Assembly: GCA_964373805.1 (NCBI GenBank)
Contig: CAYJWF010000004.1
Coordinates: 1,891-65,890 of the forward strand
Reading direction: 5' to 3'
DNA: 64,000 bases
Origin: an uncultured Planctomycetia bacterium
GTDB lineage: Bacteria; Omnitrophota; Gorgyraeia; 1-14-0-20-64-10
The notes below the pieces were generated by a model that worked only from the letters and a program-made list of their open reading frames with translations, searched no databases and was not told the origin of the DNA. Below are positions 11,770 to 50,151 of this stretch, in pieces (the first letter of the stretch is position 1; each line of letters begins with the position of its first letter). Made by a program: the position numbers and the translations under genes.

Positions 11770-11893
11770 CCATTTCTAAGAGCTCGATTCCTTCCTTAAT
11801 CGTCAGGACAGCAACCCCATTACTCCAACGTGTCATTCCACCTATAAGGATATCATACCAGAAAAATTGGTTTTAGGGATCGTGGGATGAGGC

Positions 11894-13057: not shown

Positions 13058-13165
13058 AGGGCCAGGCTACCAGGATATGGATAAATTGTCAATACGATTT
13101 ACAATATATCCATTTTTGTCCGGCGCACCCGTCTCCAGACTTACGCCTGGGACCCTAGACCTTTG

Positions 13166-13216
13166 CGACCCCCCCCCTGATTCGTTTTGCTTCGCAAACC
13201 GAATCAAAACGGTGGG
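13166..13216. repeat. R2 hairpin repeat copy A (C-run / G-run clamped)
   Basis: CCCCCCCCCTGATTCGTTTTGCTTCGCAAACCGAATCAAAACGGTGGGGG; 41-nt core identical to copy B. Confidence 0.8.
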
Positions 13217-13271
13217 GGTGTGCCTTTTCGGGAAGGGTTACAGTCTTAAGTTTACCTGAGGGGCATGCGAG

Positions 13272-13320
13272 AAATGGCGAAAATCTTTTGGCTAACTGTT
13301 CATCACGCCCTAACCGAGGC
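13272..13320. repeat. direct repeat X1 (pairs with X2 at 13972-14020)
   Basis: AAAATCTTTTGGCTAACTGTTCATCACGCCCTAACCGAGG versus AAAATCCATGGCTAACTCTTCATTACGCCCTAACCGAAAAGG. Confidence 0.6.
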
Positions 13321-13384
13321 GGGGCGTTACCAGGGTTGGATAACTCCTGGAGTAGCCAGGAAGTTGGTTAGCCGGATAGTTTCG

Positions 13385-13621
13385 CTAGGCAAGAGCAACT
13401 TCGAGGGGTCTGCGCTTGAGGGCGCTGACCCGGAGGATGGAGAATCCGAGAATGTTGCCTTTCTTATCCACTTTCTCCATCACCTGGTCACTGGCTGTCT
13501 CTCGGAAGTACCCCTTTCGTCTTTCAAAGATGACTTCCAGGTAATCCCCCTCTGGATCGTACCAAAGCTTCACAATCTTGCGTGCCATATCACGGTCCCT
13601 CTTCGAACCTTGTCGGTCCAA
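13385..13621 (-). CDS. DUF2283-family small protein (putative antitoxin)
   Basis: KLWYDPEGDYLEVIF... pattern typical of DUF2283; pairs with the adjacent DUF4258-like gene; true start probably at the internal Met (~13588). Confidence 0.5.
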   Translation of the reverse strand: MDRQGSKRDRDMARKIVKLWYDPEGDYLEVIFERRKGYFRETASDQVMEKVDKKGNILGFSILRVSALKRRPLEVALA

Positions 13622-13884
13622 TAGGCGGTCAATACAAAGGCATCGTCACCTTGAACCTTGACCACCACGCACAGAAACTTGTCCCCTACTTGGGTCCCCA
13701 TGTAGAAACGGTGGTACAACCGCGCGCCGGGATCAGCCAAGGAACGGATGACAATCTGAGGAGCTGCCAATGTCTCGGCGATGGCATCTTCCATTCCCAC
13801 CATTTCTGGGTGTTCTCGTATATGTGCCCACCGTTCCTCCGTAAGACGGATGAGCCGGCCTTCAAAGTCACGCAGGCGCTTCAT
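13570..13884 (-). CDS. DUF4258-like protein (putative toxin of a DUF4258/DUF2283 pair)
   Basis: 104 aa; ...FLCVVVKVQGDDAFVLTAYWTDK... RelE-fold-like pattern; overlaps the partner gene. Confidence 0.45.
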   Translation of the reverse strand: MKRLRDFEGRLIRLTEERWAHIREHPEMVGMEDAIAETLAAPQIVIRSLADPGARLYHRFYMGTQVGDKFLCVVVKVQGDDAFVLTAYWTDKVRRGTVIWHARL

Positions 13885-13971
13885 TGCCTCGGGATGCCGA
13901 CGTTCGGTAAAAGAACCTCCAAGTCATCCATGGCCATGATACCTCTAAGTATAGCCGATGGACACCAGAGA

Positions 13972-14020
13972 GATGCCAAAAATCCATGGCTAACTCTTCA
14001 TTACGCCCTAACCGAAAAGG
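13972..14020. repeat. direct repeat X2
   Basis: See X1; the pair brackets the DUF2283/DUF4258 module just inside R2 copies A and B. Confidence 0.6.
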
Positions 14021-14137
14021 AGGGAATTCGAATCTGTTTAGCTCTTTGCGACAGCGACGAGCGCGCCCGACGGCAATCCATCCGTCATTTCGACGACCGG
14101 AGGGAGGAGAAATCCCGCTTTTGAGATTTCTCGTCGT

Positions 14138-14188
14138 CCCCACTGATTCGTTTTGCTTCGCAAACCGAATCAAAACGGTGGGGACTCC
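14138..14188. repeat. R2 hairpin repeat copy B (direct repeat of A)
   Basis: CCCCACTGATTCGTTTTGCTTCGCAAACCGAATCAAAACGGTGGGGAC. Confidence 0.8.
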
Positions 14189-14264
14189 TCGAAATGACAA
14201 TTTTCTCTCAAACCGCTAAACATCTATTCATCTATTTAGAGGGTATCCCCGGGCCCCTGCGGAC

Positions 14265-15257
14265 TTACGCCTGGGACCCTATGCCGAGGGACTGCTCCAA
14301 GCCTGCCGCAAGGATCGAGACCAAGTCCGGCGAAACTCCGAAACCCTTCAAGATCGCATCCATCGAGAACAGCTCCTGCGCGAAGTAAAGACGTAGAACA
14401 TCCGCCGCGACCCGAACCGGATAAACATGTTCCAGCGGACCCAAATAAGTAACTCGGGAAAGACCATGGATTTTCTGGAAGGCGGTTGTTACCGCATCCG
14501 GGGATCGCTCCGGAACGTAATGAATCCGCCGATTCTCACCGACAAGTCCTTCGGCCAACTCCGATTCCCCCAGCAGAACCAGCCGCCCGGCAAACCGATC
14601 CAGCCTCCGGAGAACCTGGACCAAATCAGCATCTAACGTAGCGGCATCCAGAACAACCGCCTGAATCCCCTCGACGCTTGCCTCCGCCATCGCAACCGCC
14701 ATCGCAATCCCCCGATCCCCTTCCTCTACGTTTCTGGCTGCGTTAGCGGCCAGTCCAGGAAAGTGCCGCGCATCAGCGCGGCCTTCCTCCAGCCCAGAGG
14801 GATTACTTTCTCCCGTGGTACCTGGTTTCGCCTCCCGCTCTGACCCTGAGAAATTTCTTAACAATCGAGGAAGGAATCCCATCACCTTACCAGGAATAGC
14901 CCCCTCCCCACCCCGCCAGCGGGAGATCGTCTCCCGACTCACCGGCTTCCCGCCGTTGTACCCTGCACCTGCCAGCGCCTGAGCCATCCCTTCCTGCGTC
15001 AACCCCAGCCAATCCATCACCTGGCCAAACTCTGTATCACCAGCGACTTCCGAATCCGCTGCATCCTCCTCCAGCCCGGCGAAGGCAGCGGAGGAGCCTC
15101 TGGACCCCCCTGGAAAAGCCGCCTCCAGCTCAGAGCTGGCGGCACTTTCCAGGCCAGCCTGGGCACGCAGCGCAAGGGCAACGGAAGGCCGAACAAGCGT
15201 TAGAGCCAAGAAAAGCCCCAACGAGCTTCGCCAACGGTCCATTCGTTCTCTTCTCAT
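14265..15257 (-). CDS. secreted hypothetical protein of the GLEE-motif family, with embedded repeat and an HTH-like segment
   Basis: Signal-peptide-like N-terminus; several (A/S)GLE(E/Q) motifs; C-terminal ...ILAAGLEQSLGIGSQA; segment GLTQEGMAQALAGAGYNGGKPVSRETISRW resembles an HTH; carries repeat R1. Confidence 0.45.
   Translation of the reverse strand: MRRERMDRWRSSLGLFLALTLVRPSVALALRAQAGLESAASSELEAAFPGGSRGSSAAFAGLEEDAADSEVAGDTEFGQVMDWLGLTQEGMAQALAGAGYNGGKPVSRETISRWRGGEGAIPGKVMGFLPRLLRNFSGSEREAKPGTTGESNPSGLEEGRADARHFPGLAANAARNVEEGDRGIAMAVAMAEASVEGIQAVVLDAATLDADLVQVLRRLDRFAGRLVLLGESELAEGLVGENRRIHYVPERSPDAVTTAFQKIHGLSRVTYLGPLEHVYPVRVAADVLRLYFAQELFSMDAILKGFGVSPDLVSILAAGLEQSLGIGSQA
14712..14800. 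repeat. R1 repeat element, longest copy, in GLEE-family gene
   Basis: CTCTACGTTTCTGGCTGCGTTAGCGGCCAGTCCAGGAAAGTGCCGCGCATCAGCGCGGCCTTCCTCCAG; includes hairpin CCGCGC-ATCA-GCGCGG. Confidence 0.8.
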
Positions 15258-15409
15258 AGGCAGACCATCGAATACGTTTGAGTTTACCTGAAGAATTGGG
15301 AAAGCGCAAGATTCCTGACTGTCTATCGTTACGACTTACTCCTGGTGGGCTTGGCGCTGCGAAAGCTGTTGACACCCATTTCGTCACTTAGGACAATAAA
15401 TGACGACAC

Positions 15410-16117
15410 ATGCCTTTCATCTTGTTGGTCATTTTTGGTCTGGCCGGTTGCGCCACAAAGGCTGGTCCAGCCCCCACTGCGGGATTCGTGGCGGCGGCTC
15501 GGCTTACCCAACCGACGGGCCTTCCCTTTCACAAGGCCTGGCAGAAACCGGAATTCGACTGGGGTCAGTACGGAACCATTTCGGTCAGCCCCGTCAACAT
15601 CGATTACCTTCCCCAGATGGACTGGTGGAAAAAGTTGGAACGGGGTCAAGGCTTTCAAGCCGATGCCAAGAAGCTGGCCGAATACACGCGTCAGACCTTT
15701 GAAGAGGCGTTCCGCGAAGATCCGAACCAACGCTTTCAGGTAGTCGATGCGCCTCAAACCGATACCCTGATTCTGGAGATCGCCCTGGTGGAGATCGTCC
15801 CCAGCAAGATCATGTTAAACACCTTAGGCTACGCCCCCTTTGTCGGCAGCGCCTTTAAGCTGATCCGAAACACCAAGTCCAAAAGCTCCGTGGCCTTCGA
15901 GGCCCGGTTCCGAGACGCCCAAACCGGCGAGGTCGTGGCCCAATTCGCCGACCGGGAGTTCGAGAAGATGTCGCCGGTGAATGTCAAGGATGTCACCTGG
16001 TACGGCCATGCCGAGAGCATCCTCTGCGAATGGGCCGACCAGTTCGTCCGGATGGTGAACCGAAAAGAAGGGGAACAGATCCCCGACTCCAAACCGTTCC
16101 ACCTGAAGCCCTGGTAA
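15410..16117 (+). CDS. lipoprotein, DUF3313-like
   Basis: Lipobox LAGCAT after a short signal peptide; 235 aa; one of very few plus-strand genes in the first 35 kb. Confidence 0.5.
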   Translation: MPFILLVIFGLAGCATKAGPAPTAGFVAAARLTQPTGLPFHKAWQKPEFDWGQYGTISVSPVNIDYLPQMDWWKKLERGQGFQADAKKLAEYTRQTFEEAFREDPNQRFQVVDAPQTDTLILEIALVEIVPSKIMLNTLGYAPFVGSAFKLIRNTKSKSSVAFEARFRDAQTGEVVAQFADREFEKMSPVNVKDVTWYGHAESILCEWADQFVRMVNRKEGEQIPDSKPFHLKPW

Positions 16118-16132
16118 GCAGGTTGTTTGCCC

Positions 16133-16185
16133 AGCCCCCCCCCCCCAAGCTTCGCTTTGCGAAGCAAAACGCGGGGGGCCAGCCG
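16133..16185. repeat. R2 hairpin repeat copy C, between convergent genes (possible bidirectional terminator)
   Basis: CCCCCCCCCCCCCAAGCTTCGCTTTGCGAAGCAAAACGCGGGGGG between the lipoprotein gene (+) and mcsB (-). Confidence 0.6.
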
Positions 16186-16186
16186 A

Positions 16187-17230
16187 TTAGAGGGTTTCTC
16201 GCAGGAGTTTGGCGCGGCGGGCGTCCCGTTCGGAAGGGTTTAAGCCGCGGCCCTCCAGCTTCTGAAGATGGGCCGGCTGGGTCTGGATGAAGAGGCGGTT
16301 CACCAGTCCCCGCTCGAGATTGTTCATTAAACCCAGATCGATACCGAGACGCACCAAAGACAAAAGCTCGACCGTCTCGTTGGAGGTGATAAGGTGGGCG
16401 GATTTCAGCGTCCCCAACGCCCGCCAGATCCGATCCTCGAGAGCCTGACGGCTTTGGGTCAGGAGCGCCCGACGGGCCGCCTCCTCCTGCTCGATCACCT
16501 GTTTGATCAACCTTCCCAAGTTGTCCAGGATCTCCTCCTCGGAGACGCCGAGGCTCACCTGGTTGGACAACTGGAAGAGGTTGCCGGAGGCCTCGGTCCC
16601 TTCCCCGTAAAGGCCGCGCGCCGTCAATCCCAATTTGGAAATCGCATGGAGAACCCGGTTGATCTGCTTGGTCATCACGAGACAGGGTATGTGCAGCATA
16701 CAGGAAGCTCGCATCCCGGTTCCTACGTTGGTGGGGCAGGCCGTCAGATACCCCCACTGGGGAGAAAAGGCGTAGGCGAGATGCCCCTCCAACTGGGCAT
16801 CGATCTGACTCAACACCACCCAGGCCTCGGGGAGATTGAACCCCGACTGCAACACTTGAAGCCGCAGGTGATCCTCTTCATTGATCATGAGGGCCAAGAT
16901 CTCCCGGTCGCTCACCACGACCGCCTTTTCTCCGGAGGGGGACGCATGCTCGGGACTGATCAGGTGCCGCTCCGTGAGGAAGAGACGGTCCAGCTCCGTC
17001 AGTTCCGATAGGGCCAAGAGGAGCGACCCTTTCAAGTAGGCGCAAGTTCCCACCGCCTCCTCGATCCGGGCCAAGATTTCGACCCGCCGTTTCTTGCCGG
17101 CCCAGTGAGGAAATGGGGTGTCGCTCAAATTCCTCGCCAGCCGGATCCGGGAGGACATCACGATCTCTCCCTTGGGGCCGGTTCCCCGGAGCCATTCCCC
17201 GGTTTGGTGGACCAGATCGTCAAGGGTCAT
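16187..17230 (-). CDS. mcsB: protein arginine kinase McsB
   Basis: ATP:guanido phosphotransferase catalytic-domain signature (CPTNVGTGMRAS), 347 aa. Confidence 0.85.
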   Translation of the reverse strand: MTLDDLVHQTGEWLRGTGPKGEIVMSSRIRLARNLSDTPFPHWAGKKRRVEILARIEEAVGTCAYLKGSLLLALSELTELDRLFLTERHLISPEHASPSGEKAVVVSDREILALMINEEDHLRLQVLQSGFNLPEAWVVLSQIDAQLEGHLAYAFSPQWGYLTACPTNVGTGMRASCMLHIPCLVMTKQINRVLHAISKLGLTARGLYGEGTEASGNLFQLSNQVSLGVSEEEILDNLGRLIKQVIEQEEAARRALLTQSRQALEDRIWRALGTLKSAHLITSNETVELLSLVRLGIDLGLMNNLERGLVNRLFIQTQPAHLQKLEGRGLNPSERDARRAKLLRETL

Positions 17231-17359: not shown

Positions 17360-17974
17360 TCATCTTTTAGGTCCCTTGCCTTTCACCCTAGATTCTTCAC
17401 CCTTCACTGCCTTTGCCTTTTCCTCCACGGCTCGAACCCGATCCCGAAGACGGGCCGCCTCCTCAAAGGCCTCCGCGGCGACCGCCTTCTTGAGGTTCTC
17501 CTTAAGCCGCGCCAGATCTGTCTCTTCCCCTATGCTTTTAGCGGCATCAGCAGCCCGTCCAGAAAAGTGCCGCGCATCAGCGCGGCCTTCACTTTTCTTG
17601 GCCGCCTTCGGCTGCGAAACGGAAGGACCCTTTCCCACATGTTGGGTGGAACCGTGGATCCGCTTTAACAGGGGAACCAGGTACGGCTCAAACGTCTCGT
17701 AACAGTTCCCGCAGCCAAGCCGACCAACCTTGCGAAACCCTTCGTAAGTCATTCCACACCTGGGGCAGGAAAGCTTGGTTCGCTCGGTCGACTCTCCTTT
17801 AAGCCCGAAGTCGGCGAGGCCGGCCAAAAGGCCTGCTAACCCGAACTCCTGCCCTGCCGCAGTTCCTTTCTCGTGCGCGCAGCTCTCGCAGAGATGGAGC
17901 TCGCGGGTCTGGTCGTCAATGATCTCGGTCAGATGAACCGTCGCCTCGTTTTGTCCACACAGGTCACAGGTCAC
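17360..17974 (-). CDS. mcsA: McsA, activator of protein arginine kinase (zinc-finger / UVR domain)
   Basis: CxxC pairs (CDLCG...CESC; CPRCG...CGNC) and a C-terminal UVR motif (AVAAEAFEEAARLRDRV); carries a partial R1 repeat. Confidence 0.75.
   Translation of the reverse strand: MTCDLCGQNEATVHLTEIIDDQTRELHLCESCAHEKGTAAGQEFGLAGLLAGLADFGLKGESTERTKLSCPRCGMTYEGFRKVGRLGCGNCYETFEPYLVPLLKRIHGSTQHVGKGPSVSQPKAAKKSEGRADARHFSGRAADAAKSIGEETDLARLKENLKKAVAAEAFEEAARLRDRVRAVEEKAKAVKGEESRVKGKGPKR
17533..17600. repeat. R1 repeat element, partial copy (3' half), in mcsA
   Basis: ...CCAGAAAAGTGCCGCGCATCAGCGCGGCCTTCAC; the 33-nt core is identical to the 14712 copy. Confidence 0.75.
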
Positions 17975-17984
17975 AAGCTTTCCT

Positions 17985-18012
17985 CAAAAAGGTACCAGGT
18001 ACCATTTTAAAA
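17985..18012 (-). terminator. putative rho-independent terminator of ilvE (GGTAC-CTG-GTACC hairpin plus U-run)
   Basis: Minus-strand RNA reads ...AAAAUGGUACCUGGUACCUUUUUGAG directly after the ilvE stop. Confidence 0.5.
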
Positions 18013-18017
18013 CCCCA

Positions 18018-18036
18018 ACGGGGTCAGACCCCATCA
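18018..18036. repeat. P1 palindrome, intergenic (ilvE-mcsA)
   Basis: CAACGGGGTCAGACCCCATC. Confidence 0.8.
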
Positions 18037-19685: not shown

Positions 19686-20803
19686 CTAATCCCCATGGCC
19701 GCCAACCCTACGGCCAACGCGTCCCAAGGTTCCAACTTCACCGGCAGCCGATCGATGTAATAGATCTCCGGTGGCAGCTGAATGAACTGGTACTTCGCCA
19801 AGAGGGTGCACAAACCGAGCCCCAGCCCGCCCCCTAAGAAGGTGCCGAGACAACCAATGAGTAGACCGGCCCAGGTAAAGATCCGACGGATGGAGGCGTT
19901 GGTCGCTCCTAAGGCCTTCAAGATCCCAATCTCCTTCGTCTTCTGAACCACCACGATGAGAAGGGTCGCCACGATGTTAAAGCAGGCCACCAACACGATG
20001 AGGGCCAAGATGACGAACATGGTCACCTTCTCCAATTTGAGGGCCGCAAAGAGATTTCGGTTTAAGTCCATCCAGGTCACCACCCAGTACGGAAACCCAA
20101 GCTTCCGCCGAAGGAGATCCCGAACCGAAGGGGCCTCCAGCGCCGCTTTAAGCCGCACCCCAATTCCAGAGACCCGATCCGGAGTGCCGGCGACTCCCTT
20201 CACCGTCTCGATGGAGGCGAGGGCCAGATTGAGATCGTAGTCGTACATCCCGGTCGCAAACGTGCCCTTGACCTTCATGGGGAACTTGGTGGCCTTCTCT
20301 CCGCCGATCACCGTGATGGAATCCCCGGGTCGAACCCCCCAGCGCCGAGCCAGTTCCGACCCCAGGATTAACTCTCCCGATTGCGGCGGCCAGTACCCTT
20401 CTCTTCGAGAAAGGCGGCTCGCCAACTCCGTCACGGAAGGTTCCCTGGCTGGGTCGATCCCTCTGAGGATGACACCGGTCGCCTCCTTCCCCCGTTGAAG
20501 CAGCACTTGGATTTGGAGGAAAGGGGCCGCCGCCTCCACCTGAGGAATTTCGGTGAGCGTGTTTAAAATGGAATCGACCTCAACGACCCCTCCCTCGGCT
20601 TCAACGATGAGATGTGGATTCGCCCCGACGATCTTCGACTGCAAGTCGGCATCGAACCCGCTCATCACCCCTAACACCACGAGAAGCGCCGCCACCCCCA
20701 AGGCCACCCCCCCCACCGAGATCACCGCGATCACCGAGACAAACGGCTGCGATCGCTTCAACCCCTTCAAATACCTCATCGCCAAAAACAGTTCGTACCT
20801 CAT
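19613..20803 (-). CDS. lolC: lipoprotein-releasing system permease LolC/LolE (FtsX-like)
   Basis: MacB/FtsX-type 4-TM permease with a large periplasmic loop; 396 aa. Confidence 0.75.
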   Translation of the reverse strand: MRYELFLAMRYLKGLKRSQPFVSVIAVISVGGVALGVAALLVVLGVMSGFDADLQSKIVGANPHLIVEAEGGVVEVDSILNTLTEIPQVEAAAPFLQIQVLLQRGKEATGVILRGIDPAREPSVTELASRLSRREGYWPPQSGELILGSELARRWGVRPGDSITVIGGEKATKFPMKVKGTFATGMYDYDLNLALASIETVKGVAGTPDRVSGIGVRLKAALEAPSVRDLLRRKLGFPYWVVTWMDLNRNLFAALKLEKVTMFVILALIVLVACFNIVATLLIVVVQKTKEIGILKALGATNASIRRIFTWAGLLIGCLGTFLGGGLGLGLCTLLAKYQFIQLPPEIYYIDRLPVKLEPWDALAVGLAAMGISWASCLYPAWVAARKQPAEAIRYE

Positions 20804-21288
20804 CCGTGAATTTTACTCTCGATCCAATCCAAGGTATTCCGGAGAAGGGCCGCTACGTCTTCAGCATCTTGGCGAGTGGGTAACCCCTCCGGTCCAATCC
20901 CCGGCAACGCATCTGGATAGCGGGTAGGAATGTAATACTGATCAAGCTTCAGACAGGTCTCTTGAAGCTTTGAAAAGCTGGCATCGAGATCTTGACAAAT
21001 AGCCAATAGCTCACCCAGGGCATGCGATCGAGGAACGGATCGCTGGCGGCTCCGCAAGAAACCCTTTAATGCCTTCTCCACACCTTGTTGAGCATGGAAA
21101 CAAGTCTGATTGTAGATCCCTTTCTCTAGGGCTGCTTCCGCCAACACAAAATCCTCGCGTGCAAACTCCATCCACCTATGCGGCTCGGTCATAGAGGACC
21201 TTCCCTTTATGGGCGATCTCGTCCACCCAAAAGCAATGGTCACTTTTCTCCATCTGAGCCACCTCTTGGGGAGTATAGACGACCACAT
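20800..21288 (-). CDS. HEPN domain protein (toxin component of a HEPN/MNT pair)
   Basis: Rx4-6H-like region and YYIPTRYPD motif; start is probably the internal Met near 21192. Confidence 0.7.
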   Translation of the reverse strand: MWSSILPKRWLRWRKVTIAFGWTRSPIKGRSSMTEPHRWMEFAREDFVLAEAALEKGIYNQTCFHAQQGVEKALKGFLRSRQRSVPRSHALGELLAICQDLDASFSKLQETCLKLDQYYIPTRYPDALPGIGPEGLPTRQDAEDVAALLRNTLDWIESKIHG

Positions 21289-23679: not shown

Positions 23680-23687
23680 ACCCTTTA

Positions 23688-23730
23688 GATGGTACCAGGT
23701 ACCTTTCTAAAATGGTACCTGATACCATTT
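23688..23730. repeat. P2 twin hairpins GGTACCAGGTACC + GGTACCTGATACC (lnt 3' end / lysS upstream)
   Basis: GATGGTACCAGGTACCTTTCTAAAATGGTACCTGATACCATTTTA. Confidence 0.8.
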
Positions 23731-23732
23731 TA
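23706..23732 (-). terminator. putative rho-independent terminator of lnt
   Basis: Minus-strand RNA ...AAAAUGGUAUCAGGUACCAUUUUAGAAAGG just after the lnt stop. Confidence 0.45.
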
Positions 23733-25178
23733 CGGCCTTCCTCGATGCAAAGATAGGGAATCCACCCCGGATTCAAAGCGAGGAACTGAGGAGATCCGCC
23801 GCCCGGCCGGATCGATGAAGCCGGACCACCCGGTGTTGGCGGCGCGAACCACCCAAACCCGGTTTTCAATCGCACGGAACACGCAGGCCTGCAGATGCTG
23901 AAGCGAGGCAGCCGACCGATGAAACCAGGCGTCGTTGGTGATGACCAGGAGCCACCGGGCCCCTTCCCGAACAAAACGTCGAGACAAATCTGGAAAGAGA
24001 TCCTCGAAGCAGATGAGCACACTGAAGGGAAGGACGTCGTGGGTCTTGAGTCTTGAGTCTTCAGTAAAAGGCTGCCGAAAAGTAGCCGGTTGGAAAACGG
24101 TGAATCGACTTCCGGGGGAGAAATTCCCCATTAAAACGAACCGGCGTAGCCATCCAAAAAAGAACTCGAGGGGGAGGTATTCCCCGAAAGGGACCAGATG
24201 AACCTTGTCGTAACGTTCCACGAGATTCCCTTGGGGGTTTAAAAGGCAAGCGCTGTTAAACATCCTTTCGGTACCTGATACCGTTTCAGTAACCGGTGCC
24301 CCCACCAGTAAAGGAGTGTCCGTGGCTTGCGCCAATTTCTGGAGCCGTTCGAAGATCTCGGGGTCCTCCAAGTATCCAGGTACCGCCGTCTCCGGCCAGA
24401 CGATGAGGTCCGGACGGGATTGAGCGGCTTGACCCGTTAACGTTTCGTAGCGATGCCAGATCTCCTCTTGGAAAACCTCATCCCACTTCTCGGTCTGCGG
24501 GATGTTGCCCTGCACCACCGCAACCCTGAAAGACAGTCGTGGGTCGTGGGTCGTGGGTCGCGAGTAAACCTCAAGCTGGTGAATGCGAAAGGAGCCGTAG
24601 GCCAGCGCAGCAAGCAAACAGGCGCCTGCCAACGCTATAGCGGATAGTCCTTTCCTATACGCTGTACGCTGGACGCTATACGCTAACCAAAGGGCCACGT
24701 TGACCAGAACCACGAGAAAAGAGACCCCGTAGACACCGGTCAAATCGGCGATCTGAATGACCGGAATCCAATTCCACTGGGTGTGAGCGATCAGGTTCCA
24801 TCCGAAGCCGGTCAACCAGGTGTTGCGAAGATACTCCAGAAGAACCCACGCCGCCGGCAAAGTGAGAAGGGGTGTACGGTGTACGGTGTGCGGCGTACGG
24901 CGAAGACCACTCACCATTCTCTGGGCGAGCCAGCCCCAGATCCCAAAATACAGAGCCAGGTATCCGATCAGTAAAACCGTCCCGGGAATCGTCACGTATC
25001 CCACCCACCAGATCGTCCCAGCAAAGAAGAGGATCCCGATAAGATAGCTTTGTAGGAAGGCCTTTCTTGGGGAACTTTTCTCCAGCGCAAGCAGCCAAGG
25101 CAGATAGGCCACCCACGCTAGCCACCCCAAATCAAAAGGCGGGAAACTTAAGACGAAAAGAAGGGCAGAGACAGCCAA
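23730..25178 (-). CDS. lnt: apolipoprotein N-acyltransferase
   Basis: N-terminal multi-TM region plus C-terminal CN-hydrolase domain (CFEDLFP); carries three in-frame heptamer tandem arrays and one GGTACCTGATACC palindrome. Confidence 0.85.
   Translation of the reverse strand: MAVSALLFVLSFPPFDLGWLAWVAYLPWLLALEKSSPRKAFLQSYLIGILFFAGTIWWVGYVTIPGTVLLIGYLALYFGIWGWLAQRMVSGLRRTPHTVHRTPLLTLPAAWVLLEYLRNTWLTGFGWNLIAHTQWNWIPVIQIADLTGVYGVSFLVVLVNVALWLAYSVQRTAYRKGLSAIALAGACLLAALAYGSFRIHQLEVYSRPTTHDPRLSFRVAVVQGNIPQTEKWDEVFQEEIWHRYETLTGQAAQSRPDLIVWPETAVPGYLEDPEIFERLQKLAQATDTPLLVGAPVTETVSGTERMFNSACLLNPQGNLVERYDKVHLVPFGEYLPLEFFFGWLRRFVLMGNFSPGSRFTVFQPATFRQPFTEDSRLKTHDVLPFSVLICFEDLFPDLSRRFVREGARWLLVITNDAWFHRSAASLQHLQACVFRAIENRVWVVRAANTGWSGFIDPAGRRISSVPRFESGVDSLSLHRGRP
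24036..24900. repeat. four separate heptamer tandem arrays inside lnt
   Basis: (GTCTTGA)x2.4 near 24044; (GTCGTGG)x3.4 near 24529; (AGCGTMY)x4 near 24640-24690; (GTGTACG)x4 near 24866. All are kept in frame (encode SRLKT, PTTHDPR, AYSVQRTAYRK, RTPHTVHRTP). Confidence 0.7.
24268..24284. repeat. P2 single hairpin GGTACCTGATACC inside lnt
   Basis: In frame; encodes ...ETVSGTER... Confidence 0.7.
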
Positions 25179-25618: not shown

Positions 25619-28606
25619 TCATGCACCATGACATCGTTTGTATTTCCTGCCACTGCCGCAGTAACAGGGATCGTTCCTTCCCACCTTGGGATGTTCCCGT
25701 CGAAATGGGTGGGAGCTCTCCCGCGCTTCGGCCATCGGACCGGCTCCCACTCCCGGAACAAACGGTTCGTCGGTCCCTTCACGAAACGATTCGGGGTTTA
25801 TCAACGAAGGCGTCGGAGTCGCCGCCTTCGGGGCTTCTGGATGAAGGAACTGTGTCGGCTCCAAAACCCGAGGCCTCGTCTCGGTCCGAACCGCTTGGAT
25901 CTTGAAGATAAGCTCCACGATCTCTTGTCGGACCGATTCCACCATCCGGGTGAACATCTGGTACGCCTCGTGCTGATACTCGACCAACGGATCCTGCTGG
26001 CCGTAGACCCGATAGCCGATCCCTTCCCGCAGGTGGTCCATGGCGTAGAGATGATCCTTCCACTTGGTGTCGATGACCTGAAGCATTACCCACTGCTCCA
26101 GCCGCCGCATCGACCCTTCCCCCAATACCGATTCTCGGGCCTCGTAGGCCTGATGGGCGGCGGTGAGGAGGCTCTGCGCCAGATCTTCTCTTCCTATACG
26201 TTTCTGGCTGCGCCAGCGGCCAGTCGAGGAAAGTCCCGCATCAGCGGGGCTCCCCAACTTCGCGAAGTCGGGGATCGCCACCGAAAACCGGCCTTGGATC
26301 GCCTCGGACAATCCGGAGAGATTCCACTCCTCCGGATCTTGATGAGACAGCGCATAAAGATCCAACAATCCCTGGATCGATTCCTCCACCATCTCGAGGA
26401 TCTTAGGCTTCAACTCTTTACCCTCCAAGACCGCCCGTCGCTCCCGGTAGATCACCTCCCGCTGGCGGTTCATCACGTTGTCGTACTCCAAGAGACGTTT
26501 CCGAATCTCGAAGTTGTGCGTCTCCACCCTCTTCTGGGCCGTCTCGATCGCCCTGGAGAGCCACGGGTGTTCGATCGCCTCCCCTTCGGGGATGGCCGCC
26601 TTGGTCCACTCGAGAAGTCGGTTCTCTCCGAAGATGCGGATCAAGTCGTCGTCCAGGGAAAGGTAGAATCGGCTAGAGCCAGGATCCCCTTGTCGGCCGG
26701 AGCGCCCGCGAAGCTGGTTATCGATCCGGCGGGACTCGTGCCGCTCGGTGCCGAGGACGTGCAGACCCTTCAAGCCTACCACCTGGGCATGTTCCGCCTC
26801 CACTTGGGTCTGCACCTTCGGTTCGATCTCCTTCAAAAGCTCGGCCTCGACTTCCTGTGAAAATTCAGGGACCATCTCCGCCGGAGGCGGGCCCTGCGCT
26901 TGCCCGCCCTCATTTTGGCGGGGGGACCCTCCCTGAGCGAGCTGGTCCTTTCGGCGTTTCAGCTCCGCGGCGATGAGGAATTGGGGATTCCCTCCCAAAA
27001 GGATATCGGTCCCCCGCCCCGCCATGTTGGTGGCGATGGTCACCGCCTTGAATCGCCCGGCCTGAGCGACGATCTGGGCCTCCTGCTCGTGGTATCGGGC
27101 GTTGAGGACGTGGTGCGGGATCTGGCGGCGTTTCAGAAGCTCGCTTAACCGTTCCGACTTCTCAATGGAAACGGTGCCCACCAGGACCGGCCGGCCTTCC
27201 CCGTGCAGCTGGGTGATCTCCTCTTCGATGGCTTGGAACTTTTCCCGTTCGGTCTTGTAGACCACATCCGCGTAGTTGGTTCGAATCAAAGTCCGGTTGG
27301 GGGGGACGGTGACCACCTCCAGACGATAGATCTGGTGGAACTCGGCCGCTTCGGTGGAGGCGGTGCCGGTCATCCCTGCCAGCTTATCGTACATGCGAAA
27401 GTAATTCTGGAAGGTGACCGTGGCCAAGGTCTGGTTTTCCCGTTCGATCCGAACCCCCTCCTTGGCCTCGATCGCCTGATGGAGCCCGTCCGACCAGCGA
27501 CGACCCGGCATGAGCCGGCCGGTAAATTCGTCGACGATCACCACCTGGCCGTCCTTGACCATGTAGTCGACGTCCCGCCGGTATAAGGTGTGGGCCCGGA
27601 GGGCCTGGTTGATGTGATGAACGAGGGTGATGTTGGTGTCCTCGTAGAGGTTGCCCACCTGGAGAAGCCCCTCGGCCTTCTTGACACCCTCCTCGGTTAA
27701 GATCGCCGAGTGGGCCTTCTCATCCACGGAGTAGTCCGCGCCCTTCGCCAGTTTCGGAACGATCCGATCGATCTTGAAATAAAGCTCGGTCGACTCCTCA
27801 GCCGGCCCGGAGATGATGAGGGGCGTTCTCGCCTCATCGATCAAGATCGAGTCGACCTCATCCACGATGGAATACGACAATCCCCTCTGGACGCATTCCT
27901 CCACGGAAACCACCATGTTGTCCCGAAGATAATCAAAGCCGAACTCGTTGTTCGTCCCGTAGGTGACGTCGCATGCGTAAGCGGCCTTACGATCCGAGGC
28001 ACCCATCTCGTGTTGAATCGCCCCGACGGTTAACCCTAAGCTTTCGTAGATCGGTCCCATCCAGTTCCGATCCCGTTTGGCGAGGTAGTCGTTCACCGTC
28101 ACCAGATGGACTCCGCGCCCCAAGAGGCCGTTTAAAAAGACGGCCAGGGTGGCCACCAGGGTCTTGCCCTCACCGGTAGCCATCTCGGCAATCTTTCCCT
28201 GATGGAGAACCATTCCTCCGATCAGCTGCACGTCGAAATGGCGCATGTTCACCGTCCGACGGGCCGCCTCGCGAACCAAGGCGAAGGCCTCTGGGAGAAT
28301 CTCCTCCATCGCCCGATTCTCGATCTTTAAGCGACGCTTCCGTTCCCCCTTCAGTGCGTCTTCGTCGTTGGGATCGATGGAATCGCCCAGTGGGACGGTG
28401 CCATCGGAATCGATTCCGCCTCCGAGTTGTGCGATCCGGGCCTTCAGACGTTGACGCAACGCCTCGGCCTTTTCCTTTAATTGGGAATCGCTTACATCCT
28501 TCACCGTCGGCTCCAGGGCGCTGATCCTTGCCACAACAGGCATCAGCCGCTTCAAGAACCGCTCGTTCTGCGAGCCGACCAGTTTATTGAGGAACCAGTT
28601 CAACAT
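25619..28606 (-). CDS. secA: preprotein translocase ATPase SecA
   Basis: DEAD-like motor motifs and C-terminal zinc-binding [14 protein letters not shown]; 995 aa; carries an in-frame R1 repeat in a variable C-terminal region. Confidence 0.95.
26196..26265. repeat. R1 repeat element (RPE-like), copy in secA
   Basis: CTATACGTTTCTGGCTGCGCCAGCGGCCAGTCGAGGAAAGTCCCGCATCAGCGGGG...; same element at 8733-8800, 14712-14800 and partially at 17533-17600. Confidence 0.8.
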
Positions 28607-28640
28607 GAGCGTATAGCGGATAGCGTAGAGCGTATAGGAT
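28607..28640. repeat. heptamer tandem array (CGCTATA-like x4) immediately upstream of the secA start codon
   Basis: Plus strand GCGTATAGCGGATAGCGTAGAGCGTATAGG; mRNA sense CCUAUA CGCUCUA CGCUAUC CGCUAUA CGCUC-AUG; no obvious Shine-Dalgarno. Confidence 0.7.
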
Positions 28641-32451: not shown

Positions 32452-32955
32452 TTAAATAAAACCTTCTTCTTTGAGGAGGCGGCGCTTGGCGGCGAGGCCC
32501 CCTTTGGCGGAGTACCCCCCTAAGGTCCCATCACTGGCGATCCCGCTTCGCGGGATTCTCCTTAAACGGTGCACCTTTCGGTGCACGAAAAACTTAGAGG
32601 AAACGACCCGGTGGCAGGGGATCTGAGGCGCCCAGCGGTTTCGTTTCAAGGCCTGCCCCACCGCCCGAGCCGCTTTCGGCTGGCCGATCTGTCTGGCCAC
32701 CCAGGCATAAGTTCGCACCTGCCCCTTGGGAATCTTCAGGATCGCCTCGTATACCTTCCGTTGAAACGGGGTACACTTCTTCCACCACTCCTGCCGATCG
32801 ATCCCATCTCGAATGGGGTCGAAGGGTCGAATCACTACAAGGGGCAGATCCCCACGGGTGATCATCATCGGCTGCCTGTGTCTTGCCACTTCATCCATTA
32901 CCCTATCGAAGTTCCTCTCAGTGAACCTTTCTGATATCTTCTTCACTTTTATCAC
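32452..32955 (-). CDS. ogt: methylated-DNA-protein-cysteine methyltransferase (MGMT/Ogt-like), with a 23-aa insertion in the active-site loop
   Basis: Conserved MGMT C-domain (TPFQRKVYEAI...TYAWVA...PCHRVV ... DGTLGGY). PCHRVV and DGTLGGY are separated by 23 extra residues encoded by two GAA(A)-loop hairpins in the DNA. Confidence 0.7.
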   Translation of the reverse strand: MIKVKKISERFTERNFDRVMDEVARHRQPMMITRGDLPLVVIRPFDPIRDGIDRQEWWKKCTPFQRKVYEAILKIPKGQVRTYAWVARQIGQPKAARAVGQALKRNRWAPQIPCHRVVSSKFFVHRKVHRLRRIPRSGIASDGTLGGYSAKGGLAAKRRLLKEEGFI

Positions 32956-34417
32956 CTTCCTGTGTCTTGTCTGTCTTTAGATGAATCAGGATTCGCTGGG
33001 CGAGTACCGCAGAGATTCCTCGCACCTGGGTGAGATCCTCGGCAGTGGCCTTGCGGATCGCTTCCACCGAACCGAAGAGAACCAAGAGGTCCTGCCGCCG
33101 GCGGGGCCCCACCCCGGGAACATCATCGAGGGCTGAGCTCAGCGCGTGCTTGCCTCGGAGAAGCCGGTGATAGCCAATGGCGAACCGATGGGCCTCATCC
33201 CGGAGCCGTTGGATGAGCTGCAGCGCCTTCGACTGCGGCGGCAAAACGATCGGCTCCTCGTGGCCAGGCAGGAACAGCTGTTCGAACTCCTTGGCGATCC
33301 CCACAGCCGGCAGATCCAGTTTAAGCTCCCTGAACACCTCCAGGGCGGCGTTGAGATGCCCCTTGCTTCCGTCGATCACCACCAGGTCCGGCCTTTTTTC
33401 GGTACCAGGTACCTTTTTAAGAACGGTGCCTGGCACCGTGAGGGGTTCGTATCGCCGCCGGACGATCTCTTTCATCATGGCGTAATCGTCAATCCCGTGG
33501 ACGCCCCTGATTTTAAATCGACGGTACCCATCCTTGAAAGGGACTCCGTCGACAAAGGTCACCATCGACCCGACCGCCTGACGGCCGAAGAGGTTGGAGA
33601 CGTCAAACCCCTCGATGCGCTGGGGCAGCCGCGGCAACTTGAAGATCGATCGTAAGTCGTCCAAGGCCTCGGCCGGGATCAGCCGCCGGGGACGGACGGT
33701 CAGTTGAAGTAAGCCGGCCACCTGATCCCTGAACCTCGCCGCCTCCTCGTAGCGACGGGTCTGGGAGGCCTCGTTCATCTTCCCTTTAAGATCTTCGAGC
33801 ACCTCCTCCTTTTTGCCTTCCATCAATCGGAAAACCTGGGAGAGGTTTTCTCGATAAGCCGCTGGAGAGATCTTTCCTTCACAGGGCGCTGGGCAAAGCT
33901 TGAGATGATAATCGAGACAAGCCCGTTTCGGCAACGTCCGACAGGTTCTAAAAGGGATCACCCGTCGAATGGCGCCGACGGCTTGCCTGAGCAGTTTGGC
34001 GTTGGTGAAGGGGCCGATCGCCTTGATCCCAGACTCGTGGGTCCCCCGCCCAATGAAAAGCCGAGGAAACTCCTCCTCCACGGTGATCTTTAAGGAGGGA
34101 TACGACTTGTCGTCTCGAAAGGAAACGTTGTACTTAGGTTGATGCTCCTTGATGAGGCTCGCCTCGTAGAGAAGGGCCTCCGCCTCCGAGCCGGTCAAGA
34201 TCCACTCCAAATCGTTCGTCTGCTGAATCAGTCGGAGCAGCTTATCGGTGAGCGGCCGACTGGGTTGAAAGTAGCTTGAGACCCTCTTGCGCAGGGAAAC
34301 GGCCTTGCCAACGTACAGGATCTGGCCGTCAACGTCCTTGAAGAGATAGACCCCGGGGCGGTCGGGAAGCTCGCTTAACTTTTTCTGAAGCGCTGGGGGC
34401 ACCGCTCGGCCAGCCAT
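32918..34417 (-). CDS. uvrC: excinuclease ABC subunit C
   Basis: N-terminal GIY-YIG (GVYLFKD...YVGKA), UVR domain, RNase-H-like endonuclease domain and C-terminal HhH; carries a twin-hairpin insertion encoding TVPGTVLKKVPGTEKR. Confidence 0.85.
   Translation of the reverse strand: MAGRAVPPALQKKLSELPDRPGVYLFKDVDGQILYVGKAVSLRKRVSSYFQPSRPLTDKLLRLIQQTNDLEWILTGSEAEALLYEASLIKEHQPKYNVSFRDDKSYPSLKITVEEEFPRLFIGRGTHESGIKAIGPFTNAKLLRQAVGAIRRVIPFRTCRTLPKRACLDYHLKLCPAPCEGKISPAAYRENLSQVFRLMEGKKEEVLEDLKGKMNEASQTRRYEEAARFRDQVAGLLQLTVRPRRLIPAEALDDLRSIFKLPRLPQRIEGFDVSNLFGRQAVGSMVTFVDGVPFKDGYRRFKIRGVHGIDDYAMMKEIVRRRYEPLTVPGTVLKKVPGTEKRPDLVVIDGSKGHLNAALEVFRELKLDLPAVGIAKEFEQLFLPGHEEPIVLPPQSKALQLIQRLRDEAHRFAIGYHRLLRGKHALSSALDDVPGVGPRRRQDLLVLFGSVEAIRKATAEDLTQVRGISAVLAQRILIHLKTDKTQEGDKSEEDIRKVH
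33400..33442. repeat. P2 twin hairpins GGTACCAGGTACC + GGTGCCTGGCACC inside uvrC
   Basis: TTTTTTCGGTACCAGGTACCTTTTTAAGAACGGTGCCTGGCACCGTG; each hairpin reads VPGT in the uvrC frame (TVPGTVLKKVPGTEKR). Confidence 0.85.
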
Positions 34418-36256: not shown

Positions 36257-37201
36257 AAGCTCTCGATCCGCTAACCACTCTGGAGCCGGGTGTCCTAACT
36301 TCAAATCGGCGTCGGCCTTCAACAGATCCTCTAAGGCTTGTTGGAGACGGGCCAAAGGCCACTCTTTAAGACGGCCCATCGCCGCCTGCCGGGAAACCGA
36401 GGTCCAGGATCCCATCGAGAAACCGGTTCGGGAGCGCCACACCATTCGGTAGTACCACCCTAAGGCTCCCATCATCTGTTCCACCGCCAGCCGTCCCTGC
36501 CCCAAGGCCTGCCGCAACAACGCCACGGCCAGCCCTGGCCGGCCAGCCGCCGCCTGATCGAGAATGTCAAAGGCGGTCTCTCGAACCGATGGCGCCATCA
36601 AGGCCTCCACCTCGGCCGCGGTGATCCGCGGGAACTGAGCGGCCAAGAGGCTTAAGGACTCCAGGGCATTGGCCAACAACACGAGCTCGTTTCCCAAACG
36701 GGTGATCAGGAGATCGACGGCCTCTGGATCGATCGATTTCCCTAAACGGGACGCCTGCTCCTTGACCCACCCTTTGAGCTCCGGTCCTTTAAGCGCTCGA
36801 CACAAGACGATCTGAAGCGAACCGTCTCGTCGATGTTCCGGAAATAAAAGATTCCAATCCTGTTCCCATCGCTTAAGACAGAGGGCGAGGCAACTCTTGG
36901 GATTCGGCCGTTTAAGATACTGAGCCAACCTCGCCTGGAGCTCAGGGGAAAGAAGGTCCAAGCCCTCGACCACCACCAGACGGCGCGCCGATCCTAGAGG
37001 ATAGATGGAAGCCGCTTCAAAGAGCTCCGCGAGCTCAGCCGGCGGTTCGGGGAAACGGACCCAGTCGACCTCTTCAAACCCTCGAGCGACGTTCTCCTCT
37101 TTAAGCCGACGGATCGCCTGGTCCTTGAGCCACGCCTCCGGACCCATCAGGAGAACTACGGCGGGCGCTTGCACGAGGGGCTCAACATTACCAGTCTTCA
37201 A
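36239..37201 (-). CDS. holA: DNA polymerase III delta subunit
   Basis: Delta-subunit length and helical clamp-loader pattern; conserved lptE-holA adjacency. Confidence 0.7.
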   Translation of the reverse strand: MKTGNVEPLVQAPAVVLLMGPEAWLKDQAIRRLKEENVARGFEEVDWVRFPEPPAELAELFEAASIYPLGSARRLVVVEGLDLLSPELQARLAQYLKRPNPKSCLALCLKRWEQDWNLLFPEHRRDGSLQIVLCRALKGPELKGWVKEQASRLGKSIDPEAVDLLITRLGNELVLLANALESLSLLAAQFPRITAAEVEALMAPSVRETAFDILDQAAAGRPGLAVALLRQALGQGRLAVEQMMGALGWYYRMVWRSRTGFSMGSWTSVSRQAAMGRLKEWPLARLQQALEDLLKADADLKLGHPAPEWLADRELLRLGS

Positions 37202-39097: not shown

Positions 39098-40693
39098 TTA
39101 CCACTGAGAACTAGCGAAAGGCCACTGGGCCATCCAGAGAACGAGCTGAGTCAACCCATGCGCCAGCCCCGTAAAGCTGGCGACAAAAGGGGCGGCCAAC
39201 CCTGGATGGATCGCCCCTGCTCCTAACAACCCGATTCCGGTGGCCACCAAAAGCGAGGTCCACGGAACGATGAGGAGATTGGCCAACGGGGCAATGGAGG
39301 TCACCAGATGGAAGTGCCAAGCCACCCAAGGCACCACGGCGACCCAGGCCGCCACGGAAGTGGCCACGGCCTGGGCGATCCACCGCCAGAATCGCCCTTC
39401 GGTGTCCCGTTCGGTGTCAGACACCGAAGCAACTTTTATAAAGATGGTGCAGTGTCTGACACCGTCGGTCAGCAACCTCGCCAACCACGGCGCCAAAACG
39501 AGCAGACCCAGAACCGCCGAAAAGGAAAGCTGAAACCCTGGATCGGCCAACGCTCGAGGACCGACCGAGAGGATCCCCAGCGCCGCCAACCCCAGAAAGT
39601 TGATCTGCGGGTGTTCCCTTCCCCGCCACAAACTTAAGGAAAGCCCGATCCCGGTGATCGTAGCGCGAAGGATGGGGGGATCCGCTCCGGTGAGTAGGCC
39701 GTAGACGGCCAGGATCCCGATCACCATCCCAAAGCGGACAGCGCGCGGGATCCGCAGAATCGTCAATCCTATTCCGGCGATGAATCCGATGAGGCCCACC
39801 TGAAAGCCGCTCACCACCAACACGTGAATCGTCCCGGTCCGGCGAAAGGCTTCCCGCAACGAAGAAGGAATCTCTCCGGGGGTCCCTAGAAGAAGTTCTT
39901 CCAGGTAAGCGGCCTCGAGGGGACCCAGCAGGGAACGGCCAAGCTGTTGAAGCTGCCGCCGAAAGGCCGCCACCCATCGTCGATAACGCACCCAGGGTCC
40001 CCCCATCTGCCCAAGAGACGTCATGGAACTCGGATCCGATACCGTGAGAATTCCACACGCCTCGTTCAGCCAAAGCCAGCGGCGCTCATCCCCCCTCACC
40101 CTTTTCCCTCTCCCCTCAGAGGAGAGGGTGGGGGTAAGGGGCCCACGGATCTCTCCGTGGAGGCGCACCCGGTCCCCGTAAGCCAGCGCGACTCCATACG
40201 TTGGGAGCCGAACCAACACCTTGCCGGAGGCCGGAATCCAGCCGTCCCGCTGCCAAACCTCGGTCAAACGGAGCCACCCTTGCCGACGCGCCGGTCCGGA
40301 GGGAGGTTTGGTCCACTCCACATCGCTGGCCATCACTCCTTTGCAAGTAATGGGCCGCGGTGGCTCTGCTAGGTGACGGGCAATGGAATCGGTCGGCATT
40401 TGGGCATCCACGAAGGCCCGGAAAAATCCGAGGGCTCCGATGAGGAACAAGAGAGCCCCGTTCGCCATCACCGATCGATGCCGAATCCAGTAGTAAATTC
40501 CGGCAACAATTCCGACCCCACCCCCAATCGCCCAGACCGGCGGCTGGATCCACCAGGCCAACCCGATCCCACAGGAAAAAGCTGCGGCCACCGCCGCCAG
40601 GGGCGCCCGATGGGTCGGCTGGCCCCCCGCGTTTTGTTTCGTTGGCGAAGCAAAACGAAACTTGGGGGGCTGGGCAACTGGGGATGGATTCAT
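39098..40693 (-). CDS. comEC: competence protein ComEC/Rec2 (DUF4131 plus competence domain, no beta-lactamase domain)
   Basis: Multi-TM ComEC core; the tracked N-terminus is read through repeat R2 copy D, so the true start is probably further in. Confidence 0.7.
   Translation of the reverse strand: MNPSPVAQPPKFRFASPTKQNAGGQPTHRAPLAAVAAAFSCGIGLAWWIQPPVWAIGGGVGIVAGIYYWIRHRSVMANGALLFLIGALGFFRAFVDAQMPTDSIARHLAEPPRPITCKGVMASDVEWTKPPSGPARRQGWLRLTEVWQRDGWIPASGKVLVRLPTYGVALAYGDRVRLHGEIRGPLTPTLSSEGRGKRVRGDERRWLWLNEACGILTVSDPSSMTSLGQMGGPWVRYRRWVAAFRRQLQQLGRSLLGPLEAAYLEELLLGTPGEIPSSLREAFRRTGTIHVLVVSGFQVGLIGFIAGIGLTILRIPRAVRFGMVIGILAVYGLLTGADPPILRATITGIGLSLSLWRGREHPQINFLGLAALGILSVGPRALADPGFQLSFSAVLGLLVLAPWLARLLTDGVRHCTIFIKVASVSDTERDTEGRFWRWIAQAVATSVAAWVAVVPWVAWHFHLVTSIAPLANLLIVPWTSLLVATGIGLLGAGAIHPGLAAPFVASFTGLAHGLTQLVLWMAQWPFASSQW
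40612..40665. repeat. R2 hairpin repeat copy D at the comEC 5' end
   Basis: CCCCCCGCGTTTTGTTTCGTTGGCGAAGCAAAACGAAACTTGGGGGG. Confidence 0.7.
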
Positions 40694-50008: not shown

Positions 50009-50029
50009 AACAATTTCCATTCAAATACT

Positions 50030-50113
50030 TGGGGATGTGCTGGAATTGGCAGACAGGGGAGTCTCAAAAACTCCTGGGCGCAAGCCCGTGGGGGTTCAAG
50101 TCCCTCCATCCCC
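50030..50113 (+). tRNA. tRNA-Leu (anticodon CAA), type II with long variable arm
   Basis: Acceptor GGGGATG/CATCCCC, D-arm CTG-GAATTGGCAGA-CAG, anticodon stem GGAGT/ACTCC with loop CTCAAAA, variable arm TGGGCGCAAGCCCGT, T-loop TTCAAGT; coordinates +/-1. Confidence 0.7.
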
Positions 50114-50151
50114 ACTCAAATTTCTCCATCCCTCATTTGGGAGGGCTCTTG

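Follow-up and report, generated by a model that had tools for sequence, protein, structure and literature searches.

We describe here a short, hairpin-forming DNA element that lies in frame inside unrelated protein-coding genes of an uncultured member of the Omnitrophota. It was found in a 64,000-nucleotide (nt) stretch of a metagenome-assembled genome (MAG), referred to below as the window, and seven copies are now known: five in the window, one between genes in another MAG (contig L002), and one deduced from the tail at the C terminus of an RsmH protein (P0121), so that six are known as DNA. Taken as a whole, the observations are best explained, and we think quite probably so, by a small non-autonomous piece of selfish DNA of exactly 63 nt, or 21 codons. 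The host frame is never broken because this length is fixed. In addition, the reading frame and the orientation of the same DNA vary among the copies, and one of them is non-coding; this argues for selfish DNA and not for a shared peptide. Six of the seven copies are in coding sequence, which is roughly the expectation from coding density.

A first-pass annotation of the window had reported a repeat inside four minus-strand genes, with the ORFs (open reading frames) unbroken, and this was borne out. The four clear copies were recovered by nhmmer at E = 1e-22 to 1e-24, the next-best match in the 64-kb window having E = 0.38, and pattern searches with either half of the element gave three and two matches, with none in shuffled sequence. 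All four lie inside uninterrupted minus-strand ORFs, and the peptides quoted for them were correct. The mcsA copy had been described as a 3′ half only; it is in fact full length (63 nt), with a more diverged 5′ half that is 67–81% identical to the other copies. Overall, pairwise differences among copies are 14–33%. The fifth window copy, the sixth unit to be recovered, was found with a covariance model built from the five close units (19 bits, E = 0.003–0.006). Its 14-nt flank plus head (TTCCTCTAAGTTTT) fits the family head pattern exactly, and its stems pair despite their changed sequence (GTGCACC-GAAA-GGTGCAC and TCCCGC-GAA-GCGGGA). The L002 copy is bounded exactly by the stop codon of a helicase-like gene on one side and the GGAGG-N8-GTG start region of typA on the other, in a MAG labelled "uncultured Planctomycetia" that has a GC content similar to that of the window and has in common with it the unusual palindrome GGTACCWGGTACC. 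In P0121, the RsmH methyltransferase domain is complete at residue 292, and the 26-residue tail that follows corresponds to the element in plus frame 1.

The consensus reads, from 5′ to 3′, a head TCTA(C/A)GTTT, a GC-rich hairpin 1, a spacer containing AGGAAAG, a GC-rich hairpin 2, and a CTTCC-like tail. In copy 2, the 9-nt head TCTACGTTT is followed by hairpin 1 (14734–14753), the spacer TCCAGGAAAGT, hairpin 2 (14765–14782), and the tail CTTCC. Internal dyad symmetry had been noted before, and it is present; the stronger dyads, however, are CTGGCTGC-GCCA-GCGGCCAG for hairpin 1 (8 bp; in the general plan, a 7–8 bp stem and a 4-nt loop) and GCCGCGC-ATCA-GCGCGGC for hairpin 2 (7 bp). The element lacks terminal inverted repeats, since TCTACGTTT at one end and GGCCTTCC at the other are not mutually inverted. 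The exact ends of copy 1 are fixed by an empty site, and the boundaries of copies 2 to 4 and of the L002 unit were set by register with copy 1.

The empty site comes from a close relative of the first host gene. In a search of 1.8 billion representative proteins with the 504-residue product of this gene, the closest relative (P0124) was 89% identical and lacked exactly 21 residues, and six remoter relatives also lacked them (seven of seven in all). The Logan contig that encodes P0124 (L029) is 92.5–94.9% identical to the window across 4.7 kb, including the flanks of copy 1. It reads GGATGGAT/AGAAGGCAC at the junction (in gene sense GGATGGAT/AGAAGGCACTCAC), whereas the window reads GGATGGAT, then 63 nt, then AGAAGGAGCTCAC. 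The difference between the two is a clean 63-nt insertion beside a pre-existing CTTCT, without target duplication. As this contig is only ~7% diverged from the window and yet lacks copy 1, the element was active recently, after that split.

The other hosts gave a concordant picture. About 40 SecA relatives lack the insert, and excising its 20 residues gives ...DFAKL/GREDL..., which fits the ...L-G-R-E-E-L of the relatives. The only available McsA orthologue, in the related contig L010, lacks the 21 residues, which lie in the linker that joins the zinc-finger part to the UVR motif. Likewise, the methyltransferase orthologues in L009 (a second related contig) and L010 lack exactly 21 residues (SSKFFVHRKVHRLRRIPRSGI), and no copies of the element were found in the relatives' DNA (43 kb of L009 and L010, plus L029). 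The prediction that orthologues would be free of the insert was therefore confirmed for SecA, McsA, and the 504-residue protein, and these comparisons support the view that the copies are secondary insertions and not ancestral sequence.

The sites of insertion share a short motif. The pentamers directly to the left of the six DNA copies are CTTCT, CTTCC, CTTCC, CTTCC, CCTCC, and TTTCC, and back-translation of the RsmH copy gives CTnCC. Only 2.6% of window positions are within one mismatch of CTTCC, and the probability of a five-copy coincidence is ~1e-8, a figure that covers the five copies known as DNA when it was computed. The element thus goes in immediately 3′ of a CTTCC-like target pentamer. 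For the copies other than copy 1, the element's own tail resembles the target, so that a 5-nt duplication would look alike. In predicted folds, the central AGGAA(A)G can pair either with the target CTTCC or with this CTTCC-like tail.

The two hairpins are conserved, in copy 5 through what appear to be compensatory changes. Among the five close copies, pairing is 88%, compared to at most 51% when the partners are slid. When the diverged copy 5 is included, 92% of cells are paired (at most 47% with partners slid), and both sides have changed in 7 of 15 pairs, a number reached in none of 500 shuffles. On the plus strand, the fold z-scores range from −2.2 to −5.1.

Four of the six reading frames of the element are free of stops, and four translation modes are seen among the copies: reverse-complement frame 1 (three copies), a hybrid (secA), plus frame 1 (RsmH), and plus frame 3 (methyltransferase). 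In the antisense orientation one frame is open, the other two running into a TGA in the hairpin 2 loop and a TAG in the head. Therefore, the frame shared by the three antisense copies, which yields a nearly common peptide (EGRADARHF.GLAA.AARNVEEG), follows from there being a single open antisense frame, and selection on the peptide is not needed to account for it. The earlier claim that the four copies are read in different frames had to be narrowed accordingly: three window copies share one frame, and the secA copy differs from them only in its distal two thirds, where hairpin 2 has a 2-nt deletion. At secA the target, GGAAG, is in a different codon phase, which would bring the hairpin 2 loop TGA in frame. 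However, this copy is 1 nt shorter on one side of the hairpin 2 loop and 2 nt shorter on the other, which puts the TGA out of frame; the open frame (..PADA..) serves for the first part and the host frame for what follows. From this we infer a pair of compensating −1 and −2 indels in the history of the secA copy.

Whether such inserts fall at positions compatible with the host fold, as is the case for known coding palindromes, was tested for SecA only, and here they do. In an AlphaFold2 model built from 64 aligned homologues (mean predicted local distance difference test score, pLDDT, of 72), residues 785–805 correspond exactly to the insert and form coil with a pLDDT of 46–55, flanked by confident helices. 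Alignment to solved SecA structures places the site at about residues 706–714 of Escherichia coli SecA, a length-variable loop that we take to belong to the helical wing domain. Mapping the insert onto SecA, as had been suggested beforehand, thus gave a low-confidence coil in a length-variable loop, and the insert is predicted to be a disordered loop. Judging from domain limits, the McsA linker and the RsmH tail would be permissive sites as well. In the methyltransferase, the insert directly follows the PCHRVV active-site motif, and the Pfam DNA_binding_1 match ends at profile position 60 of 81, where the insert starts.

Further copies were sought in several collections. A 23-nt degenerate core run against public genome and metagenome collections returned four contigs (L001 to L004), of which L002 alone holds a real copy; L001, L003, and L004 do not match past the seed. 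Viral contigs scanned with hairpin 1 and the core gave seed-only matches, the plasmid collection gave no match to the element, and no Rfam family matches any copy. A concatenated six-frame peptide query recovered only three proteins; it is insensitive to motifs of 24 residues and missed even SecA itself. A concatenated query of three host proteins gave no match. Within the window, a candidate partial inverted copy at 15139–15171 was at chance level (E = 2.9), and a 23-residue insertion in holA (~36358–36427) lacks the anatomy of the element. In the literature, we found no earlier description of such an element in Omnitrophota, and study ERP125453 yielded no publication.

The closest behavioral parallel is with the Rickettsia palindromic elements (RPE), the best-known example of small repeats that insert in frame; these are short, hairpin-forming dispersed repeats found in many unrelated genes (Ogata et al. 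2000 and 2002, summarized in PMC10969869). Like RPE, the present element is in frame in unrelated genes, including housekeeping genes, its peptide falls, in SecA, at a fold-compatible position, and orthologues do without the insert. Unlike RPE, it is hosted by Omnitrophota, measures 63 nt instead of ~100–150 nt, and has two separate stems of 7–8 bp where the RPE palindrome spans the element as one long hairpin. It also differs in its conserved 5′ target pentamer, CTTCC, and in its use of several frames and both orientations. The first-pass suggestion of an RPE-like selfish element therefore holds for behavior and for spread at the DNA level, but not for size, architecture, or host. The comparison supports an analogy of behavior and not family membership, and no relatedness in sequence to the RPE families is expected.

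Other mobile sequences offer different points of likeness. IS200/IS605 insertion sequences always place their left end 3′ of a tetra- or pentanucleotide specific to the element (PMC5027513). Their transposase recognizes subterminal hairpins, and repetitive extragenic palindromic (REP) sequences resemble these hairpins (PMC6006769, PMC3333891). As in IS200/IS605 elements and their derivatives without a transposase, the palindrome-associated transposable elements (PATEs), our element has no terminal inverted repeats, has hairpins near both ends, and has its left end directly 3′ of a pre-existing tetra- or pentanucleotide, with no target duplication at the one resolved site. In contrast to IS200/IS605, it is far smaller than a complete insertion sequence with tnpA and often tnpB, and no TnpA was found in the window ORFs scanned; moreover, its two hairpins are dissimilar, its orientation relative to GC skew may not be the expected one, and it is mostly inside ORFs. 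A TnpB fragment (Cas12f1-like_TNB domain) is present at a contig end in L009 (19689–20033), with no element-like hairpins adjacent, which indicates that IS200/IS605-family elements exist in the clade.

Like the REP, BIME, and REPIN sequences associated with RAYT (TnpA-REP) enzymes, the element consists of short GC-rich stem-loops and is non-autonomous and lineage-specific; REPs are presumed to move in single-stranded form through the action of a single-copy HUH enzyme. However, an extragenic location is part of what defines REPs, and a conserved GTAG marks the base of their stem, whereas here coding sequence is the usual location and the terminal tetranucleotides are GTAG, GTAG, ATAG, GTAT, GTAA, and TTAG (GTAG in two of six). 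Nor is either hairpin an inverted copy of the other, unlike in a REPIN. Some intragenic MITEs (transposable elements of the miniature inverted-repeat kind), namely ERIC, Coxiella QMITE1, and Anabaena MITEs, are likewise small and non-autonomous and occasionally make in-frame ORF fusions (PMC10969869). These have terminal inverted repeats and target duplications; our element has neither, the duplication being judged at the resolved site. It therefore fails both the REP and the classical MITE definitions, and membership of no described family is shown.

We propose that insertion leaves the host frame intact and would be tolerated where 21 extra hydrophilic residues can loop out, as in SecA, the McsA linker, and the RsmH tail, and that copies bringing a stop in frame would persist only with compensating indels, as in secA. 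The element would be mobilized in trans, by an enzyme able to cut and rejoin single-stranded DNA at the hairpins. By analogy, a Y1 HUH transposase such as those of IS200/IS605 or REP-RAYT is a tentative candidate for this enzyme, less likely than not in our estimation but favored because the insertion is of fixed length at a specific target, the termini are not inverted, hairpins stand near both ends, and activity is recent. It is conceivable, but in our estimation rather unlikely, that the element, with its fixed 21 codons and mostly stop-free frames, is a minimal HUH-moved single-stranded transposon adapted to genes, in which AGGAAAG would serve as a built-in guide pairing with CTTCC at both junctions. 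If this were the case, the ORFs of a compact genome would be its normal habitat and not accidental landing sites, and new loops would repeatedly arise from it in essential proteins, SecA among them.

Several observations weigh against the reading of the element as mobile selfish DNA moved in this way. Only seven copies are known, and the search with the 23-nt core placed the element in just one other genome. Covariation among the five close copies was not significant; a single diverged copy supplies most of the compensatory changes, and the alignment had been fitted to the model. The lack of target duplication is seen at one resolved site, although a 5-nt duplication with a strict CTTCC target is disfavored. 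No transposase was detected by Pfam in ~50 window ORFs, nor in the relatives' loci. For four copies in the window and the one in L002, the target-bearing strand is the plus strand, which is antisense to the host or neighboring genes; for the methyltransferase copy it is the minus strand, in sense. The GC skew on the plus strand is negative, which is confounded with gene orientation. If the skew reflects replication, the pentamer strand would be the leading-strand template, although the skew may reflect gene orientation instead. The orientation bias of IS608 is the opposite, i.e., towards the lagging-strand template.

A route that needs no transposase can also be envisaged, in which the unit, made up of a 58-nt core and CTTCC, would pass from one CTTCC motif to another through microhomology-mediated template switching or short-patch gene conversion, helped by hairpins that stall replication. 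Such a route would fit the CTTCC-like pentamer at both the left flank and the right end of the unit, the 8-nt direct repeat CCTTCCTC with a 63-nt period at copy 2, the presence of five copies within 24 kb, and the lack of a transposase among the window ORFs scanned. We nevertheless consider it improbable: at copy 1 the right end is GCTCC and the left flank is CTTCT (two of five positions matching), the L002 copy lies in a different MAG at an unrelated locus, and in the diverged subfamily the head, the length, and both hairpins have been preserved through apparent compensatory changes. Such upkeep is predicted by recognition by a protein but not by mere copying. A host-beneficial cis element acting as RNA or DNA, for instance a site of protein binding or of pausing, or a module acting in mRNA stability or as antisense RNA, recruited into several genes, might account for the conserved hairpins, for a plus strand that folds better than shuffled sequence, and for the exact fit of the L002 copy between a stop codon and the typA Shine-Dalgarno sequence. 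This appears highly improbable to us, as the host genes are unrelated in function, the copies occur in both orientations relative to transcription, orthologues do without the element, Rfam has no match, and hairpin 1 has decayed in the mcsA copy.

The nearly identical peptide obtained from three copies could be taken to suggest a functional peptide module, i.e., an interaction motif or degron spread by recombination. The single stop-free antisense frame forces that similarity, however, while SecA, RsmH, and the methyltransferase yield unrelated peptides, one copy is non-coding, and the SecA insert is predicted to be disordered, so we give this explanation very little credence. Finally, an artifact of assembly or binning (chimeric joins, contaminating sequence) has to be considered, as the source of the window is a MAG and assemblies do break at repeats. 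The copies are 14–33% apart, however, their flanks are continuous ORFs, and the mcsA and secA regions are 100% identical in the independent Logan assemblies of four sequencing runs; an artifact therefore seems almost out of the question.

In-frame "coding palindromes" are commonly regarded as peculiar to Rickettsia, and the mobile selfish element proposed here provides a clean case in an unrelated, uncultured phylum. Its nucleotide-exact empty site shows insertion directly, and its sequence-specific target is a concrete clue to a mechanism, which for RPE is to our knowledge still missing. The insertions also illustrate that essential proteins tolerate an extra 20 or 21 random residues, as in SecA, McsA, and the methyltransferase, in the last case right beside the catalytic cysteine. 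In practice, repeats of this kind interrupt short-read assemblies and make proteins in MAGs look more novel than they are. Coordinates of the copies, target pentamers, and host genes are collected in Table 1.

Table 1. Copies of the 63-nt element, pentamers at their left flanks, and host genes (window coordinates unless a contig or protein is named)
Feature	Position	Strand	Description
Copy 1	8733–8795	+	63 nt, TCTACG...GGGGCTCC; antisense to host ORF 1; read as 21 residues
Copy 2	14725–14787	+	63 nt; nearest to consensus; 97 bits with the covariance model
Copy 3	17529–17591	+	63 nt; in mcsA; most diverged of the main group; hairpin 1 decayed
Copy 4	26195–26255	+	In secA; 61 nt as aligned; net insertion 60 nt (20 residues)
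Copy 5	32536–32598	−	63 nt; diverged subfamily; sense, in methyltransferase gene; boundaries ±3 nt
L002 copy	L002:7270–7332		63 nt; between genes, in another MAG
RsmH copy	C-terminal tail of P0121		Sense to gene; inferred from protein only (six-frame peptide query)
Pentamer, copy 1	8728–8732	+	CTTCT; directly 5′; present already in empty site
Pentamer, copy 2	14720–14724	+	CTTCC
Pentamer, copy 3	17524–17528	+	CTTCC
Pentamer, copy 4	26190–26194	+	CTTCC
Pentamer, copy 5	32599–32603	−	TTTCC
Host ORF 1	7781–9295	−	504 aa; uncharacterized; upstream of mlaEFD
Host ORF 2	14265–15257	−	330 aa; uncharacterized; within 4.4-kb mcsB-clpC stretch
Host ORF 3	17360–17974	−	McsA; 204 aa (170 aa in L010)
Host ORF 4	25619–28606	−	SecA; 995 aa
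Host ORF 5	32452–32955	−	O6-methylguanine-DNA methyltransferase-like

The window is a housekeeping region that is syntenic with L009 and L010 and includes cysS, ispDF, mlaFED, clpC, mcsAB, lysS, lnt, secA, prfB, and uvrC, as well as murJ, holA, lptE, comEC, leuS, and nrd. The closest other SecA proteins are at most 73% identical and are annotated as coming from Candidatus Omnitrophica/Omnitrophota MAGs. Of the gene labels given initially, SecA (Pfam) and McsA (Pfam UVR motif; NCBIfam McsA model, E = 5e-41) stood, while AsmA-like and GLEE-family found no support, the 504- and 330-residue hosts having no family match in Pfam or NCBIfam. Host ORF 5 starts ~50 residues upstream of its orthologues with a segment that is Phd/YefM antitoxin-like, and its true start codon is uncertain. 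Between mcsB and clpC, which are adjacent in L010, the window has ~4.4 kb (~11800–16200) that hold an AAA_14/DUF4143 ATPase, a DUF3313 gene (plus strand), and the 330-residue ORF with copy 2; this stretch may be an accessory island. Two Logan contigs, L030 and L032, both end at window position 26217, inside hairpin 1 of the secA copy, as branching of the assembly graph at a repeat would predict. These breaks imply another copy in the same samples sharing at least one k-mer, which is likely the RsmH copy.

Several other repeats are present in the window. A second family of small palindromes with A/T-rich flanks (GGTACCWGGTACC, GGTGCCWGGCACC) occurs at 33392–33437, 17982–18012, 23682–23735, and 63801–63841 and is mostly intergenic. 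Two of its units are in frame in uvrC (32918–34417, minus strand), where they encode TVPGTVLKKVPGTEKR; at this site, UvrC of L009 lacks 12 residues and that of L010 lacks 6. A single occurrence of the motif is found in L002, and L009 and L010 have none. A family of 46-nt intergenic palindromes, CCCC...CGTTTTGCTTCGCAAACCGAATCAAAACG...GGGG, is found at 13172–13217, 14138–14183, 40623–40668, 60109–60154, and 16136–16186, and two of these copies, 98% identical, flank part of the mcsB-clpC stretch. Recurrent GGGGTCWGACCCC hairpins (2123–2152, 3622–3651, 18006–18032, and 47790–47834), in some cases with a run of T after them, might represent stereotyped terminators or else a REP-like family. Tracts of AGCGTAT-like units that repeat every 7 nt lie directly 5′ of the secA start codon (28608–28639) and, as an inverted counterpart, in lnt (24653–24684), the two arms being 32 nt long, 88% complementary, and 3.9 kb apart. 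Among the housekeeping genes there are also a LAGLIDADG-like ORF (50029–50895, plus strand), a HEPN-domain protein (20800–21288), and a second AAA_14/DUF4143 ATPase (45522–46826).

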